Virus record (IMG/VR): IMGVR_UViG_2541047126_000018
From: a virus
Taxonomy: Duplodnaviria; Heunggongvirae; Uroviricota; Caudoviricetes
Direction: 5' to 3' (one strand)
Length of the DNA stretch: 6,511 bases
Under the pieces are notes generated by a model. It made no database searches, had not been told where the DNA came from, and saw only the letters and a program-made list of their open reading frames with translations. Positions 133 through 6,395 of this stretch are shown here, one piece after another (the stretch's first letter is position 1; the number at the start of each line of letters is the position of its first letter). The position numbers were made by a program, and so were the translations under genes.

Positions 133-322
133 CTCACTTTTTCGCCTCACTTTTTCAAGCGTCTCACTTCGTCGCAGTTGGGATTTTCGGTTTTTCTATG
201 TGTGTGTTTCATAAGTATTTTTTTACCCCTCACTTTTGAGGATGTATACAGGTCGAAAAGTGAGGGAGAGCGGGCTAATTTTGGCCCTCTTTCTATCCCC
301 CTCGCTTTTGCTCCTCACTTTT
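133..322. repeat. Iteron array with AT-rich spacer; putative origin of replication downstream of rep
   Basis: Direct copies of CTCACTTTT or close variants at 133-141, 146-154, 163-170 (CTCACTTC), 229-237, 301-309 (CTCGCTTTT), 314-322, plus an inverted copy AAAAGTGAG at 256-264 forming an inverted repeat with the 229-237 copy; AT-rich stretch about 181-226. The last copy overlaps the rep stop codon (321-323). Confidence 0.55.
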
Positions 323-1721
323 ATAGCGGCGCTACATCATCCCCATCGATACGAATAACCCCATCTTTTTCCAGCTTGTACAGCCAGCGCCGGAAGTTTT
401 TCATTTCATACCCCAGCTTTTTCATGTCATCACGTAACAGCGGGATCGTGCACTTGTCGCCGTTCTGTGTGCGTGAACGGATGCACCCCCATAGCGCGGT
501 ATGGTTTTCCGTCTTGTTCCCTGCCTCCTCGATGCGCTCCAGTTCAACAGGAGGGCGCGGATCATCCACCACCACCAGCAACGTGATTAATTCACCGTCA
601 GCGTCGGTAAAAAGCTCCACCACGCGTAAGTCATATGCGGCTTCTTTGAGTTCCTCCGCGTCCTTCATTTTGGTGCATGAGATAACCAGCGCTTCGCTTC
701 CTGCGTCCTCCCTGCGTATCCGGTATTCAGCATCCAGCGAAGCACGAAATGCACTGGAACCGCGCGCGCCTTTCGTCTCATCCTTGCCGGAATGGTGAAC
801 CACCAGCACCGTGGCCCCTGTGCGTCGTTTCAGTTCGTCACAACCACGGATAAACGCCCCCATATCACGGGAATCATTTTCATCATTCCCACCAAAGCAA
901 CGCGCCAGCGTATCCAGAATAATCATGCGTACAGGTTTACCCGTTTCCCGCTCCACCTGACGGGCAGCGATAACCATTTCATCAACATCAAGCGGGGCAG
1001 CCGGAAAGATGGGGCGGTTTACCAGATACAGATTTTTCACCTGCTCATCGTGCACAACCTCCCAGGCTTTTACACGACGCGGAACACCTATACCGCCTTC
1101 ACCAACCACATAGAGAACCGCACCATGTGCAACCCTGCGGCCTCCCCACTGGCGACCAGTGGCAACATGGCACGCCCACGATCCGGCAAGGAATGATTTA
1201 TAGGACCCGCTAGCCCCGTATATGCTGCATAGCGATACCGCCGGAATAATCCCCTTAACCACGTAATCCAGTTGCGTGTCGTATCCGGTAGATCCAACGC
1301 TCATCGGTAGCGTGGTTTTTCGCTGGTGGTTTTTTTCTTCCGCCGGCTCTTTCCCGCGCACCCGTTCCAGGTATTCGCGCCAGTTCTCCCGCATATGGCT
1401 GTGCATCCCTTCGGGGTAATAATTCGCATCAGTTACACCCGCCGCCGCCAGCTTGTGCGCAATGGCATTAATATTTGATGGCCTGATGTGGCCTGCCTTG
1501 TACAGCCGGACACAATAGCGCCCCTCGTCGATGATTCTCAGTTCTGCCAGTTCATCCAGTTGATCATCAGCCAGCACAACGGGAGGCACATTATCGCCAG
1601 CCAGTCGCCCGTCCTGTTCCTGCCACTGTTTCGCATGTGCCCAGGCATCACTACCCGCAAAAATAATGACTTCGGTCATCTTGTCGTAAGGCTGTTTTTT
1701 TAAGTTCGGTGCGCTTTTCAT
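321..1721 (-). CDS. Replication protein, RecA-fold (AAA_25 / RepA-like) helicase-type ATPase with an N-terminal domain of unassigned type
   Basis: 466-aa ORF; deviant P-loop GASGSYKS, Walker B-like VRMIILD, and VLVVHHSGKD resembling the HH..K motif of RepA/DnaB-like RecA-fold ATPases; SD AGGGG about 7 nt before the ATG; ATGA overlap with the upstream ORF; iterons immediately downstream. Family assignment is from motif recall, not a search. Confidence 0.8.
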   Translation of the reverse strand: MKSAPNLKKQPYDKMTEVIIFAGSDAWAHAKQWQEQDGRLAGDNVPPVVLADDQLDELAELRIIDEGRYCVRLYKAGHIRPSNINAIAHKLAAAGVTDANYYPEGMHSHMRENWREYLERVRGKEPAEEKNHQRKTTLPMSVGSTGYDTQLDYVVKGIIPAVSLCSIYGASGSYKSFLAGSWACHVATGRQWGGRRVAHGAVLYVVGEGGIGVPRRVKAWEVVHDEQVKNLYLVNRPIFPAAPLDVDEMVIAARQVERETGKPVRMIILDTLARCFGGNDENDSRDMGAFIRGCDELKRRTGATVLVVHHSGKDETKGARGSSAFRASLDAEYRIRREDAGSEALVISCTKMKDAEELKEAAYDLRVVELFTDADGELITLLVVVDDPRPPVELERIEEAGNKTENHTALWGCIRSRTQNGDKCTIPLLRDDMKKLGYEMKNFRRWLYKLEKDGVIRIDGDDVAPL

Positions 1722-2017
1722 TTCTTGCCCCTGAATCCGTTAACCATGGTTTTCAGCTTCTGGATGTTTGCCCGTGCCCTGGCGTTGCTGGTGGGCACGT
1801 TATGCGGCGCGGTCTGTACCAGAGAAAAATCACGCCGGAACTGATAAACAGGCATCACGCAATCATATTCGTAACCTTCACGGCGGTAGGTTACGCGCCG
1901 TTCTTCCACGCCCTTAATCATTACCGTGCCGCCGTACTGGTCGCGGTAAATATCACCGCGCGTAAATTTAGGGTGAGTGTTGCCACTGGCAGTTAAGCCA
2001 GAATATTTAAGTTTCAT
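1718..2017 (-). CDS. Hypothetical protein, 99 aa, translationally coupled to rep
   Basis: Complete ORF; GGAGA about 9 nt before the ATG at 2017; its stop overlaps the rep start (ATGA at 1718-1721). No motif recognised. Confidence 0.6.
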   Translation of the reverse strand: MKLKYSGLTASGNTHPKFTRGDIYRDQYGGTVMIKGVEERRVTYRREGYEYDCVMPVYQFRRDFSLVQTAPHNVPTSNARARANIQKLKTMVNGFRGKK

Positions 2018-2713: not shown

Positions 2714-2915
2714 AAAGCATCCCCTGAATATTCGTGTTAATCATTCCGGCACGTTTTGTGATTTCCTGTAATGATTCCCTTGTGGCGACAATTGCTTCAT
2801 CTGGTAAGTGGTAATTACACACCACGCGACCTTTATCCACATTGACCAGTAGCTGCCCTGTGAATTTCTCACGAAACTGAATGCGGTTAAGGTCAGTAAG
2901 TGACAGATTAATCAT
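2703..2915 (-). CDS. Hypothetical protein, 70 aa (start moved to the internal ATG at 2915)
   Basis: Track ORF 2703..2957 trimmed: the ATG at 2915-2913 has a consensus SD AGGAGGTG 4 nt upstream and sits 2 nt after the stop of the upstream ORF (ATGATTAA junction); the 2957 start has no SD and would overlap the upstream gene by 50 nt. Confidence 0.6.
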   Translation of the reverse strand: MINLSLTDLNRIQFREKFTGQLLVNVDKGRVVCNYHLPDEAIVATRESLQEITKRAGMINTNIQGMLYAQ

Positions 2916-3111
2916 GGCGCACCTCCTGACGAATACGGGCGGCAAATACAGCAACACAACCTGACGGGCAACGGCTACGCGCTTCGCGTTCCGTCCAGGC
3001 GGTTACGTGGATGATTTGAGATTCTCCGGCACTCAGGGCCAGAAAACGCCAGATGTATTTATTCAGGTTGTGCGAGTCCCGCCCTTGCGGGTGTGTGGTA
3101 TGATTTAACAT
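2908..3111 (-). CDS. Hypothetical protein, 67 aa, first gene of the replication-side operon
   Basis: Track ORF 2908..3606 trimmed to the internal ATG at 3111-3109 with GAGGT SD; the longer version would run through the divergent promoter region and the RHH gene on the other strand. Confidence 0.5.
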   Translation of the reverse strand: MLNHTTHPQGRDSHNLNKYIWRFLALSAGESQIIHVTAWTEREARSRCPSGCVAVFAARIRQEVRHD

Positions 3112-3190
3112 AGCTACCTCGATACTGTTGCTATCGTTGGTTGTTAGACGCCCTGCATGTGTGCCACCACTGCGGGGCGTTGTTATTTGG

Positions 3191-3301
3191 TGCATCGCAC
3201 CATCTGTTTTTAACCTATCAGCAAGTGAATCGCACTTCAAGCCTTTTCTCTGAATTTTTTTTGTGTATACTGAATCGCACCAACTTAGAGAGGATTCAGT
3301 A
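3191..3301. promoter_or_regulatory. Divergent promoter/operator region between the RHH gene (+) and the small-gene/rep operon (-)
   Basis: Three direct copies of the 10-mer TG(A/C)ATCGCAC at 3191-3200, 3226-3235 and 3271-3280; plus-strand -10-like TATACT at 3266-3271; candidate minus-strand promoter TTGAAG (plus 3235-3240) with 17-bp spacer to TAGGTT (plus 3212-3217); inverted repeat CTGAATC/GATTCAG (3269-3275 / 3293-3299) flanking the RHH SD. Confidence 0.4.
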
Positions 3302-3481
3302 ATGGCAACAGGTTCAACAAATAATAAGTCGCAACAGTTAAATGCCAGATTCCCGCATGATGTTGTTGCAGACTTAGAAAAAAATTTAGATGAAGGTGAA
3401 AGCAAAGCGCAATTTATAGTTACTGCCGTTAAAGGCGAAATCAAACGCCGCCAGCGCCGCAAGGCCAAAGAGCAGGAATAG
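3302..3481 (+). CDS. Ribbon-helix-helix (CopG/Arc/MetJ-type) DNA-binding regulator, 59 aa
   Basis: ATG at 3302 with SD AGAGAGGA 7 nt upstream (the track's 3263 start is a GTG without SD); the segment QLNARFPHDVVADLEKNLDEGESKAQFIVTAVKGEIKR fits the beta-strand/helix/helix RHH pattern; basic C-terminal tail; only plus-strand gene in the element. Confidence 0.65.
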   Translation: MATGSTNNKSQQLNARFPHDVVADLEKNLDEGESKAQFIVTAVKGEIKRRQRRKAKEQE

Positions 3482-3569: not shown

Positions 3570-3598
3570 GGCGACCGCCACAGGTCGCCTTTGTTTTA
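3570..3598 (+). terminator. Rho-independent terminator downstream of the RHH gene
   Basis: Stem GGCGACC (3570-3576) / GGTCGCC (3583-3589), loop GCCACA, followed by TTTGTTTTA (3590-3598). Confidence 0.55.
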
Positions 3599-3615
3599 TG
3601 TGTCATATGTTCCCC

Positions 3616-3840
3616 CTACGCTGCCTTACCTGAATTAATACGATCCCGGCTTTTAACCCATTCCATAACCTCGGAAAGCAGCCAACCTACTGAACGACCA
3701 CCCAGATTACGGCGTGACGGGAAATTCCCTTTTTTCTCCAGTTCGTAGCGTGTAGTGCGGCACACTCCTGTTAACTTACGGCATTCATCCTCACGGATTA
3801 CGCGATCTGATAGTGATTGAAATTGTGTATTTTGATTCAT
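3616..3840 (-). CDS. alpA: AlpA-family (MerR-like HTH) prophage transcriptional regulator / excision activator
   Basis: 74-aa ORF; segment CRKLTGVCRTTRYELEKKGNFPSRRNLGGRSVGWLLSEVMEWV matches the AlpA HTH signature (...GxSRST.Y.L...G.FP.P..LGGRSV.W...EV..W...) from memory; located downstream of a P4-type integrase. Confidence 0.8.
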   Translation of the reverse strand: MNQNTQFQSLSDRVIREDECRKLTGVCRTTRYELEKKGNFPSRRNLGGRSVGWLLSEVMEWVKSRDRINSGKAA

Positions 3841-3875
3841 AAAAAAACGTCCTCGAACGTTGCCGAACGAGGACG
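3841..3875 (-). terminator. Terminator/attenuator-like hairpin plus U-tract between the cargo gene and alpA (minus-strand sense)
   Basis: 8-bp stem CGTCCTCG (3848-3855) / CGAGGACG (3868-3875) with 12-nt loop; on the minus strand it is followed by 7 U (plus A7 at 3841-3847) and then directly by the alpA ATG (3840); the GAGGA in the 3' arm is the only SD-like element for alpA. Confidence 0.5.
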
Positions 3876-3902: not shown

Positions 3903-3935
3903 GTGTGATATCACACTACCAGCACGTGATATCAC
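3903..3935. promoter_or_regulatory. Paired palindromes, candidate operator in the cargo-alpA intergenic region
   Basis: Perfect 14-bp palindrome GTGTGATATCACAC (3903-3916) and second copy of the core GTGATATCAC (3926-3935), the latter overlapping the cargo stop codon; minus-strand -10-like TAGAAT (plus 3876-3881) nearby. Confidence 0.4.
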
Positions 3936-4705
3936 TTTTTACGTTTTTGTTGAGATTCACGCCCCAAATACTTTTGCCATGTCTGCCAATGTGTTTTTGG
4001 AAATTCTATCCCTCTGGATGCAGCTATAGAATCAATTAAATCTGCTATTTTAGGTAATGATTCCGTGTCCAGGTCTACATCACCCATTTCTGGAATAAGT
4101 TTAATTAAAGAGTAAATAACCTCATTCCTTTTTGACGATGCTTTTGGGCTATCTTCTGTTATCTTCGGGAAGTCTCCCGTATTTTTTATATTATCTAAAT
4201 CACTAGCCATCACACACAAATAGTTAACATCAAATTCATAACCACCCTTACAAAAAACATACATGAGATTATCATCACCATACTTATTCGTAAGATGAGA
4301 ACATTTTATATATTGTCTCATGCTAAATTCGACATCAGCAAAAACATATGCCGGAGTATAATAAAACCCTGATAAGCTGCTAACATAATAACATTTGATA
4401 GAATTCCCTACAGGACCAATAATGGCACTATCTAAAAATTCAGTGTCACCAGTTAAACCAACTGTAAAATTACTTCCAAAAACAGCAGATTCATCATTGA
4501 AAGGATATTTTATTAATTCTTCCTCATTACAACCATTGATAAAATGACATAATGAAAAATTGAATTTTTTAGCATCAATTTTTGGTATATATACAGAAAT
4601 ATTAAGAGCACCTATATATGCGTAATGATAAAGATCTTTTATTGCACAGCCTAACTTTTCTGCCGCTTCAGGTAACGGATAATAGAGTCTTTTAGGTAAT
4701 TTCAT
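3932..4705 (-). CDS. Hypothetical low-GC cargo protein, 257 aa, translationally coupled to the integrase; candidate accessory/defence gene
   Basis: Complete ORF; ATG at 4705-4703 overlaps the int stop TGA (4704-4702) as ATGA, with SD GAAGGTGG inside the int 3' end; GC by eye about 30-35 percent versus about 50 percent in int and rep; no catalytic motif recognised; terminator follows. Confidence 0.8.
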   Translation of the reverse strand: MKLPKRLYYPLPEAAEKLGCAIKDLYHYAYIGALNISVYIPKIDAKKFNFSLCHFINGCNEEELIKYPFNDESAVFGSNFTVGLTGDTEFLDSAIIGPVGNSIKCYYVSSLSGFYYTPAYVFADVEFSMRQYIKCSHLTNKYGDDNLMYVFCKGGYEFDVNYLCVMASDLDNIKNTGDFPKITEDSPKASSKRNEVIYSLIKLIPEMGDVDLDTESLPKIADLIDSIAASRGIEFPKTHWQTWQKYLGRESQQKRKK

Positions 4706-5925
4706 TTGGCCACCTTCAGCATAACAATATTTTCATGATTTCCAGCCAGCACATCGAGGCGCTCAACCCATAGATTAAGAGCGTCACGTTTTGCATCAAG
4801 ATAACGGGAGTGATTATAGACTCGTTGCATTCCTGGCAACTGGTGCGCGGTAAGCTGCTCCACAACATGCGGTTCCACGCCTAAATCGTTCAGCATCGTT
4901 GTAAACGTGTGCCGGATGTCGTGCAACGTCCAGGGGGCTTGATTAATGCGTCTGTGTGCCGTTCTTCCGTACTCTGATACGGATGATTGCCCTTTCAGTT
5001 CTCCGAGCAATAAGCCCGTGTGCCTGTTCTGCTCCACCAGCTTCATGACAAACGGCAAGATCGCTTCCGGTATTGGCCTGAATATTGCTACCTTCGTTTT
5101 GCTGTGTTCTTTCGGCACGGTCCAGAGCATTTCTTTAAAATCCCATTCCTGGACCTCAGAGCGTCTTAGCTCAGTGGTACGACATCCGAAGACAATCAGG
5201 AGGCGAATCAGGGCGCTGTAGTACGGTGGGTAAATTTTTTCATCAAGGGCGCGTAGTAATTCCCCAAGCTCCTTGTTTGTTAGTACGCGCTCGCTTATTT
5301 CTGCTTTTTTCCCAACATCACCGACAACCATATCATCAAGAACGTTGCTGATTGCGTATCGTCGTTTTCGGCAGTACTTAAGCGCCTGTTTGCATACCTG
5401 TAGCAAAAATCCGGCTGATACCGGATTACGCTTAGCAAGCTGGTCAAAACAGGCCAGCCAGTGGCGTAGCTCGCATTTTTCCAGTGGCATAGCTCCAATC
5501 TGGCTAATTATGTGTTTATTGATCCGGCTTTTCAGTGATTCGTAGTCAGTGCGCTTTTCCTTTGCGTACGATTCAAGCCAGTAAGTGAGCGCTTCCTTAA
5601 CCGTCACGGGGGCTAACGCGTCCTGTACAGCATGATTAAGTTCATAGCGCGGATTTTTCCCCTCAGCCAGCCATGCGCGACATTGCGACGCTTTTTCCCT
5701 GGCTGCTTTCAGGCTCAAATCTGGATAATTTCCCAGCCTCAGACGTTCAGGTGATATCTGCCTACCAGTTCCGGACCTGTAAGTGAAATACCAGGTTAAC
5801 AGGCCATTGGTTGAATGCCTTACGCTAAGGTTGCCACCATCATTAAAAAAGGTGCTTTTTGTGGTTGGTGATCCGCTTAATTTTCGTAAAAGAGTGTCGC
5901 TAAGTCTATGAATTGCCCTGCTCAT
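4702..5925 (-). CDS. int: Tyrosine recombinase / integrase, P4 family (DUF4102-type N-terminal arm-binding domain)
   Basis: 407-aa ORF; N-terminal NDGGNLSV...LGNYPDLSLKAAREKA matches the DGGGLYL...LG.YP..SL..AR pattern of P4-type integrases; box I-like CRTTELRRSEV; box II LHDIRHTF...LTAHQ...RVYNHSRY with the catalytic Tyr candidate. Confidence 0.93.
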   Translation of the reverse strand: MSRAIHRLSDTLLRKLSGSPTTKSTFFNDGGNLSVRHSTNGLLTWYFTYRSGTGRQISPERLRLGNYPDLSLKAAREKASQCRAWLAEGKNPRYELNHAVQDALAPVTVKEALTYWLESYAKEKRTDYESLKSRINKHIISQIGAMPLEKCELRHWLACFDQLAKRNPVSAGFLLQVCKQALKYCRKRRYAISNVLDDMVVGDVGKKAEISERVLTNKELGELLRALDEKIYPPYYSALIRLLIVFGCRTTELRRSEVQEWDFKEMLWTVPKEHSKTKVAIFRPIPEAILPFVMKLVEQNRHTGLLLGELKGQSSVSEYGRTAHRRINQAPWTLHDIRHTFTTMLNDLGVEPHVVEQLTAHQLPGMQRVYNHSRYLDAKRDALNLWVERLDVLAGNHENIVMLKVAK

Positions 5926-5946
5926 GTTTCGTGTTTCCGGTCATCA

Positions 5947-5974
5947 AAATTAACTACACCATTGACTACACCGT
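5947..5974 (+). repeat. Direct repeat A1 (AAATTAACTACACCATTGACTACACCGT) containing two ACTACACC octamers 12 bp apart
   Basis: Read directly; ACTACACC at 5953-5960 and 5965-5972; near-identical copy at 6179-6206. Confidence 0.8.
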
Positions 5975-5988
5975 GCATCGTACAAGGG

Positions 5989-6236
5989 CGAACTGTGACG
6001 AACAAGGGCGAACAAGAAAAACGAAATTATCCTTTATAATCATAGAAATAAATTAGATGCCCACACCATGACGAACACCCACGAACACTAACTGATAAAT
6101 AACTATCATTTATAACATTTCATTGATTAGTCTTTATTTTTCACTATGTTACAAATAACAACTCCGTCAAAAACAGCGAAATTAACTACACCATTAACTA
6201 CACCGTTTCACGAACAATATCGAACAACCACGAACA
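5989..6236 (+). repeat. Eight same-orientation CGAAC(A/T) sites in three clusters with 10-bp phasing; candidate integrase arm-type sites or iterons
   Basis: CGAACT at 5989; CGAACA at 5999, 6009, 6072, 6082, 6211, 6221, 6231; within each cluster the spacing is exactly 10 bp; a 12-mer ACAAGGGCGAAC is duplicated at 5982 and 6002. Confidence 0.75.
6179..6206 (+). repeat. Direct repeat A2 (AAATTAACTACACCATTAACTACACCGT), second copy of A1, 232 bp downstream
   Basis: Read directly; ACTACACC at 6185-6192 and 6197-6204; followed by the CGAACA triplet at 6211-6236, the same arrangement as A1 plus its triplet. Confidence 0.8.
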
Positions 6237-6395
6237 AAGATCAACACGCTTTAACCGTTATCATTTTCCGGCCATCCGTTATGAAGCTGGTGGATGTTCC
6301 CCGATATGGGTATCCCCACCTACCTGGCTTTTTTTCCGGTTAAATGTTAATCAGGCTGGTGGCCTTTACATACCCTTGATCACGGTAATGATGAT

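Follow-up and report, generated by a model that had tools for sequence, protein, structure and literature searches.

A ribbon-helix-helix protein gene with three operator-like repeats, a candidate repressor of the replication operon in Enterobacterales phage-inducible chromosomal islands

Among the closest comparisons for the locus described here is the immI region of phage P22, which combines the ribbon-helix-helix (RHH) repressors Mnt and Arc, the divergent promoters P_mnt and P_ant and the antisense RNA sar. A tetramer binds there to one operator of 17-21 bp, and the operon carries an antirepressor gene. In plasmids, the RHH proteins CopG (pMV158) and omega (pSM19035) bind contiguous sites. 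The immI region of P1 (c4 RNA-icd-ant) and the CI RNA immunity of P4 place an icd-like first gene under RNA control. In SaPIs and Gram-positive phage-inducible chromosomal islands (PICIs), the Stl/Rpr gene is divergent from the excision and replication operon and its product keeps the island quiescent (PMC6092414). Stl is a helix-turn-helix protein, encoded in the same orientation as int and inactivated by helper-phage proteins.

In the Gram-negative island EcCICFT073, alpA is essential for induction, and over-expression of AlpA alone triggers replication (PMC6092414). A survey of 2023 describes the genes of PICIs as largely unidirectional and, for the zone concerned, mentions only Bro proteins and immunity RNAs; these 'Bro zones' are reported to carry RNAs of the C4/isrK type (PMC10111431). 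The YlcI/YnfO proteins, to which the RHH protein studied here belongs, are named only 'prophage-associated protein' in the cargo tables of capsid-forming PICIs (cf-PICIs) (PMC13612085). The original prediction proposed for an RHH protein a role that is not known to have been assigned to one in Gram-negative satellites. This agrees with our literature search, which covered a minority of subscription-journal papers: we found no paper giving this family a function, no functional study of YlcI or YnfO and none of an RHH repressor in a PICI. An earlier description is possible.

The window analysed here is a stretch of 6511 nucleotides from an IMG/VR virus record (IMGVR_UViG_2541047126_000018). We identify it from its genes as the left arm, for regulation and replication, of a PICI of Enterobacterales, since the block of int, orf257, alpA and RHH genes is also found in PICI contexts in two E. 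coli strains. In strain 13E0780, this block lies between clpS and cspD and continues into a classical PICI body. In strain RM6927, a related block at the clpS-cspD site heads a cf-PICI with capsid, portal, protease and TerS/TerL genes. As in Gram-negative PICIs and cf-PICIs, the int, alpA and replication genes are co-directional, the attachment site is not that of a prophage, and tail and lysis genes are absent. The minus strand carries every substantial gene of the window and the RHH gene lies on the plus strand (table 1). The AT-rich orf257 (32% G+C versus 46% for the window) has no match in Pfam, NCBIfam or PADLOC and only a marginal one in PHROGs; it is accessory cargo. Upstream of int there are two copies of a 73-nt composite repeat (5942-6014 and 6174-6246), consisting of AATTAACTACACCATTRACTACACCGT followed by short repeats of the CGAACA type. 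In the attachment region they probably serve the integrase as arm-type sites.

Table 1. Coordinates of the genes and predicted regulatory features of the window.
Feature	Positions	Strand	Basis or remark
RepA/AAA_25 helicase gene	321-1721	-	Pfam match
DUF4222 gene	1718-2017	-	Pfam match
Four small ORFs	downstream of the icd-like gene in the P_L operon	-	ORF list
icd-like gene, promoter-proximal in the P_L operon	2908-3111	-	NCBIfam NF033153, E 4.4e-18
Structured RNA (candidate), about 80 nt, antisense to icd-like start codon and Shine-Dalgarno sequence	3111-3189	+	covariation, strand asymmetry
O1, predicted operator GGTGCATCGCACC	3189-3201		about +5 to +15 of P_L
P_L, predicted leftward promoter of the icd-like/replication operon	3212-3240	-	consensus and conservation
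O2, predicted operator AGTGAATCGCACT	3224-3236		fills the -35/-10 spacer of P_L
P_R -10 hexamer TATACT, predicted promoter of the RHH gene	3266-3271	+	consensus and conservation only
O3, predicted operator ACTGAATCGCACC	3269-3281		overlaps the -10/start region of P_R
RHH protein gene (YlcI/YnfO family, 59 aa), monocistronic	3302-3481	+	ORF, Shine-Dalgarno sequence, family profile
Intrinsic terminator of the RHH transcript, ahead of alpA	3570-3599	+	terminator scan; minus-strand T-run absent
alpA, known PICI activator	3616-3840	-	Pfam Phage_AlpA, E 3.4e-16; PMC6092414
orf257, AT-rich ORF of 257 aa	3932-4705	-	between int and alpA
int, tyrosine integrase	4702-5925	-	Pfam hits

The RHH gene is the sole plus-strand ORF of the window with family support, divergent from the icd-like/replication operon and convergent with alpA, just as had been predicted. 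A Shine-Dalgarno sequence, GAGAGGA, lies 7 nt 5' of its ATG (3302). The 59-aa product matches the YlcI/YnfO profile NF041551 of NCBIfam over positions 1-42 of 42, with 63.3 bits for a cut-off of 30 (E 1.5e-17). There is no match to Pfam-A at E up to 1 (RHH families and DUF3950 included), none of a profile of the protein to PDB sequences, and none by tblastn in the 50,697 phage records of INPHARED; PADLOC gives no match for this protein, the orf257 and orf154 products or the icd-like protein. The same NCBIfam family includes two RHH-like sequences of E. coli K-12, YlcI of prophage DLP12 and YnfO of Qin; YlcI is 23% identical to the window protein over 31 residues.

The hallmark of the RHH fold is a G-x-S/T/N turn between the two helices, together with an alternating polar/hydrophobic strand that ends before a proline. 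Both are present in the window protein (turn residues G32 and S34), whose strand QQLNARFP aligns with QFNLRWP of Arc, an alignment that is a lead only. Among 127 sequences, R16 is invariant, P18 is found in 125, S/T34 in 123 and G32 in 114. In an AlphaFold model of the monomer, built with 26 homologues (pLDDT 82.7), an extended N-terminal stretch precedes two helices, the strand-helix-helix topology of the Arc/MetJ/CopG superfamily. By profile, motif and model, the protein is thus of the RHH type, with DNA binding predicted. A dimer whose two-stranded sheet would read the major groove receives indirect support from the co-variation between strand residues and operator cores presented below.

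An alternative GTG start at 3263, giving a 72-aa form (annotated so for the related locus P0001), was rejected because it falls inside the promoter and because the conserved N-terminus and the Shine-Dalgarno sequence fit the ATG at 3302. Longer forms of about 101-104 aa occur in four loci (L001, 15319-15624; P0079; P0080; P0088). They have an in-frame insertion of about 42 codons, absent from the 59-aa form, between IKRRQ and the basic tail; it may be an oligomerization domain.

Upstream of the gene, the word TGMATCGCAC, reported in the original prediction as TG(A/C)ATCGCAC, is present on the plus strand in three exact copies, at 3191-3200 (TGCATCGCAC), 3226-3235 and 3271-3280 (both TGAATCGCAC). 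Only 0.07 copies are expected, and three or more were found in none of 200 dinucleotide shuffles. The repeat unit can be refined to 11-13 bp of the form xGTG-N5-CACx, which defines the predicted operators O1, O2 and O3. In 59 unique upstream regions, O2 is at -77 and O3 at -32 from the ATG; O1 is at -112 in the class of regions that includes the window (class A). Within class A, the 11-bp core of O2 is 100% conserved, O3 has a conservation of 0.997, and 0.97 of the O1 columns are conserved, against 0.73 in the adjoining spacer. When one mismatch is allowed, two extra sites appear, at 5566 and 5974; we do not retain them as operators, since they are within chance and not conserved, and the site at 5974 is missing from the second 73-nt repeat. 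The inverted repeat ACTGAATC/GATTCAGT (3269-3276 and 3293-3300) was also rejected as a specific structure: its ATG-proximal arm, GGATTCAGTAATG, is retained in loci with a different O3 core.

The repeats lie over two predicted divergent promoters, again as originally proposed. The leftward promoter P_L has a -35 element TTGAAG (reverse complement of 3235-3240), a 17-bp spacer that practically coincides with O2, and a -10 element TAGGTT (reverse complement of 3212-3217), with a predicted start at about 3205. In the 59 unique regions, the -35 element reads TTGA(A/C/G)G, with five positions invariant in every region, and is followed at 17-bp spacing by a -10 element TAnnTT (T56 A50 ... T51 of 59). 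O1 is downstream of the P_L start in the window and covers the -10 element in classes with a shorter O1-O2 spacing. The -10 hexamer of the rightward promoter P_R, which would transcribe the RHH gene, is nearly invariant (T57 A59 T59 A58 C52 T59 of 59 regions), and its last two bases are the first bases of O3. The -10 element of P_L in the window is weak and the -35 region of P_R (CTTTTC, 3243-3248) is poor; a simple consensus promoter scan called neither promoter and flagged only unrelated weak sites.

Since O1-O3 cover core elements of two divergent promoters, the layout is the one expected for autoregulation combined with repression of the operon. The positions are typical of steric repression, O3 lying over the -10/+1 region of P_R and O2 within the optimal 17-bp spacer of P_L, and this argues against an RHH protein that binds the sites mainly as an activator or an architectural factor. 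Such a protein might stimulate P_R when bound at O2, whose centre is near -48, or act as a roadblock or insulator that stops transcription arriving from alpA. Some observations do point that way. P_R has no -35 element and may need help, and an unterminated alpA transcript converges on the RHH gene. Mnt favours P_mnt. In the DLP12 lambdoid prophage, ylcI (L033, 8252-8446) lies in the late region, outside the immunity region, and is divergent across cos from nohD, a homologue of the terminase small subunit gene; its position beside nohD and cos suggests that the phage branch of the family may serve packaging or late genes. Taken together with its variants, an activating or architectural role appears unlikely.

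A second, candidate regulatory element lies between the icd-like start and O1. It comprises a stem-loop, SL1 (3120-3136), a GC-rich terminator hairpin (3147-3181) and a T-run to 3188, and looks like an RNA of about 80 nt, transcribed from the plus strand as a cis-antisense to the start codon and ribosome site of icd. Of 58 unique versions of the hairpin, 54 fold more stably on the plus strand (-22.9 versus -16.9 kcal/mol), and the G.U pairs favour the same strand (137 versus 24). The consensus structure of SL1 and hairpin has compensatory changes at 18 of its 25 pairs; 93.8% of the cells are paired, against 36-44% when the structure is slid, and none of 500 shuffles reaches this value. In other loci, the SL1 loop usually carries the anti-Shine-Dalgarno sequence CCUC. 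A search of the whole window against Rfam at E up to 1 found no C4 or isrK RNA, only a spurious snoRNA match.

This conserved and structured RNA, together with the analogies of P1 c4-icd-ant and P22 sar, could mean that the operon is silenced mainly by antisense RNA over the icd start and that the RHH protein only fine-tunes its own level. We think this distinctly improbable: O1 and O2 lie on P_L itself, and the promoter of the RNA is uncertain, since a possible extended -10 element (TGGTATGAT, 3096-3104, plus strand) overlaps conserved codons. The RNA and RHH layers are moreover compatible with each other and not mutually exclusive.

Related loci were collected by a scan of one genome per species, which gave 28 loci from Citrobacter, Morganella, Proteus, Pectobacterium, Dickeya, Xenorhabdus, Yersinia, Serratia, Cedecea and other genera; IMG/VR added 80, for a total of about 110. 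The order int(-) alpA(-) RHH(+) icd(-) is kept in Escherichia, Citrobacter, Morganella, Proteus, Pectobacterium, Dickeya, Xenorhabdus, Serratia and Cedecea. Outside E. coli, the identity to the window is 22-55% for int and 30-64% for alpA. Most loci have three xGTG-N5-CACx sites. Relative to the ATG, they lie at -32, at -77 and at either -112 or about -100. There are 89 unique upstream regions; most have a three-site score of 27-33 out of 33, above the maximum of 26 for shuffled sequences, and about a quarter score near the shuffle range. In the 31 unique regions of class A (mean identity 75%), conservation is 0.97-1.00 in the operator columns and 0.73-0.88 in the spacers.

All sites of a given locus have the same N5 core, and this core varies from one locus to another. 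It follows the N-terminal arm and beta-strand of the RHH protein and not the alleles of Icd or AlpA. Among pairs of loci with the same core, which like all the pairs counted here are not phylogenetically independent, the RHH arm and strand are at least 90% identical in 405 of 409, and the Icd N-termini are less than 50% identical in 364 of 409. Among pairs with unrelated cores, the corresponding figures for at least 90% identity are 0 of 675 for RHH and 32 of 675 for Icd. The strand QQLNARF is associated with the core AATCG, QKLQARA with GA(C/T)TC, QKMSARV with GCACC, QS(L/V)TARI with TCTTA, QMTTVRI with AAATA, LQVSVRL with AACAC, KRFDVRV with TCGGA, and QALKARV, the strand of EcCICFT073, with TGGCC. 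The strand alone does not set the specificity, as QQLNARF is paired with two cores, AATCG and, in the forms of about 103 aa, AATAC. With the strand QKLQARA constant, the arm MERDH is accompanied by outer CTG...CAG and the arm MATGT by outer GTG...CAC. This co-variation, with the fixed positions in about 110 loci, strongly supports the view that the three repeats are the cognate operators of the RHH protein, as had been proposed, and so predicts that it binds them.

The same data bear on the possibility that the sites are bound by AlpA, the Icd-like protein, Int or a replication initiator, the RHH protein having an unrelated role. Candidates exist: PHROGs labels the icd-like family 'transcriptional repressor', and AlpA binds DNA and activates downstream genes (PMC6092414). 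The operator core, however, tracks the RHH arm and strand independently of Icd identity, and a Morganella locus (L003) has the AATCG operators of the window class with an AlpA of only 33% and an Icd of only 44% identity. The sites are, furthermore, found only beside the RHH gene. Copies of a locus's own operator elsewhere in the locus number 0.58 per locus, versus 0.32 for non-cognate controls, and there is no fixed place, whether int, alpA or another, at which cognate operators recur across loci. Binding by one of these other proteins is thus very unlikely.

Four loci (L005, L008, L010 and L105) have two RHH/icd modules, with tandem islands in L005 and L008. The strand/operator classes of the two modules differ in all four. 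These heterotypic pairs fit a diversification of immunity types, with a number (n=4) too small for significance.

The idea of the RHH protein as a type II antitoxin, with the repeats as its autoregulatory operator, is barely tenable, because an adjoining co-transcribed toxin gene is found neither in the window (no plus-strand ORF with a plausible start follows the RHH gene, which is separated from the convergent alpA by 135 nt with a terminator) nor in most related loci (where the gap is larger, the RHH gene is still monocistronic and the extra Bro/Ant-like genes, after alpA, are on the minus strand, which removes the alternative), PADLOC has no match, and two of the three sites serve the divergent operon.

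We therefore consider it probable that the RHH protein regulates its own expression and is a local repressor of the replication operon, belonging to a group with at least 17 predicted operator specificities. The protein would bind the three 11-13-bp sites, most likely as dimers. Occupation of O2 in the spacer and of O1 past the start would shut off P_L, and with it the icd-like/DUF4222/RepA operon; O3, over the -10/+1 region of P_R, would provide negative autoregulation. The constant residues N7, K9, S10, R16 and P18 would read the constant outer GTG/CAC, and the variable residues 12-14 and 17, with the N-terminal arm, the 5-bp core and the outermost base pair. The result would be many specificity types that do not cross-react. 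Induction would need AlpA, the unterminated alpA transcript running through the RHH gene into the operon and overriding or silencing RHH. Here fold, family, geometry, co-variation and promoter hexamers are computed, and from them we infer binding, repression and the override by AlpA.

By analogy, the mechanism would be that of a classical autorepressor of the RHH type, and its nearest counterparts in regulatory logic are Mnt/Arc of P22 and the plasmid proteins CopG and omega. Differences from these systems are clear. In contrast to the one tetramer-bound operator of P22 immI, there are three separate single sites here; the operon codes for replication functions and an Icd-like protein instead of an antirepressor, and the element is a satellite. 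No family membership linking the window protein to Mnt or Arc was found at the sequence level (no Pfam match). Unlike the contiguous sites of CopG and omega, those of the window are 22-45 bp apart and serve two divergent promoters. With P1 and P4 the window shares an icd-like first gene for which RNA control is proposed; however, a C4/isrK match is absent and the RNA is a cis-antisense, encoded on the opposite strand. Of the features of Stl/Rpr-type master repressors, only the divergent arrangement is found, together with a proposed role in keeping the island quiescent. Unlike Stl, the RHH protein has an RHH fold, its gene opposes int and alpA, and the induction known is through AlpA.

AlpA also limits the role that the RHH protein can have. 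EcCICFT073 carries the module, with a YlcI/YnfO gene (C_RS30120) facing an icd-like gene, and is nevertheless induced by over-expression of AlpA alone. Repression by the RHH protein can thus not be dominant there and is at most one layer of control; if RHH is the repressor, it has to yield to AlpA. The original proposal of the gene as a candidate 'master switch' of the element thus goes beyond what is shown, and there are no operators at alpA or int. A terminator scan found no minus-strand terminator between alpA and P_L, so alpA transcripts can cross the RHH gene (antisense to it) and the operators into the operon.

The repressor layout proposed from the start stands, but two layers of regulation had been overlooked, the plus-strand antisense RNA and a terminator in the alpA leader. 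In this leader (3841-3875, minus strand), a hairpin CGTCCTCG...CGAGGACG is followed by a U7 run ending at the alpA ATG, and its 3' arm contains the Shine-Dalgarno sequence GAGGA. Several other alpA alleles have an equivalent hairpin upstream, with compensatory changes. By analogy with AlpA of Pseudomonas, which acts as an antiterminator (PMC9371919), the leader terminator may be bypassed by AlpA itself. Upstream of the leader, the perfect palindrome GTGATATCAC occurs twice, 21 bp apart (3905-3914 and 3926-3935). It is also present in L075 and, partly, in L065, and is a candidate binding site for AlpA or for an inducer from the helper phage.

At least 1347 of 5426 complete E. coli genomes (25%) carry the module. 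Gram-negative PICIs, cf-PICIs included, are widespread, and the module has been overlooked in well-studied satellites. On the sequence evidence, the RHH protein is a strong candidate for the repressor that has so far seemed to be missing from these satellites, and the results give the uncharacterized YlcI/YnfO family a likely function. EcCICFT073 is an established experimental system that carries the module, and the candidate can be tested there. The RHH proteins and their operators would also make a naturally occurring collection of small, orthogonal repressor/operator pairs.

More tentatively, and with some doubt, the YlcI/YnfO RHH proteins could be the immunity repressors of Gram-negative PICIs and cf-PICIs. 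If so, the strand/operator pairs, which diversify rapidly (at least 17 cores sampled), would be satellite immunity groups, letting several islands share one cell. The RHH protein, the cis-antisense RNA and AlpA, acting by read-through or antitermination from a convergent promoter, would together form a bistable switch resembling that of P22 immI, and this three-layer switch would decide between quiescence and induction of the satellite. The finding suggests that satellites, as phages do, possess immunity types.
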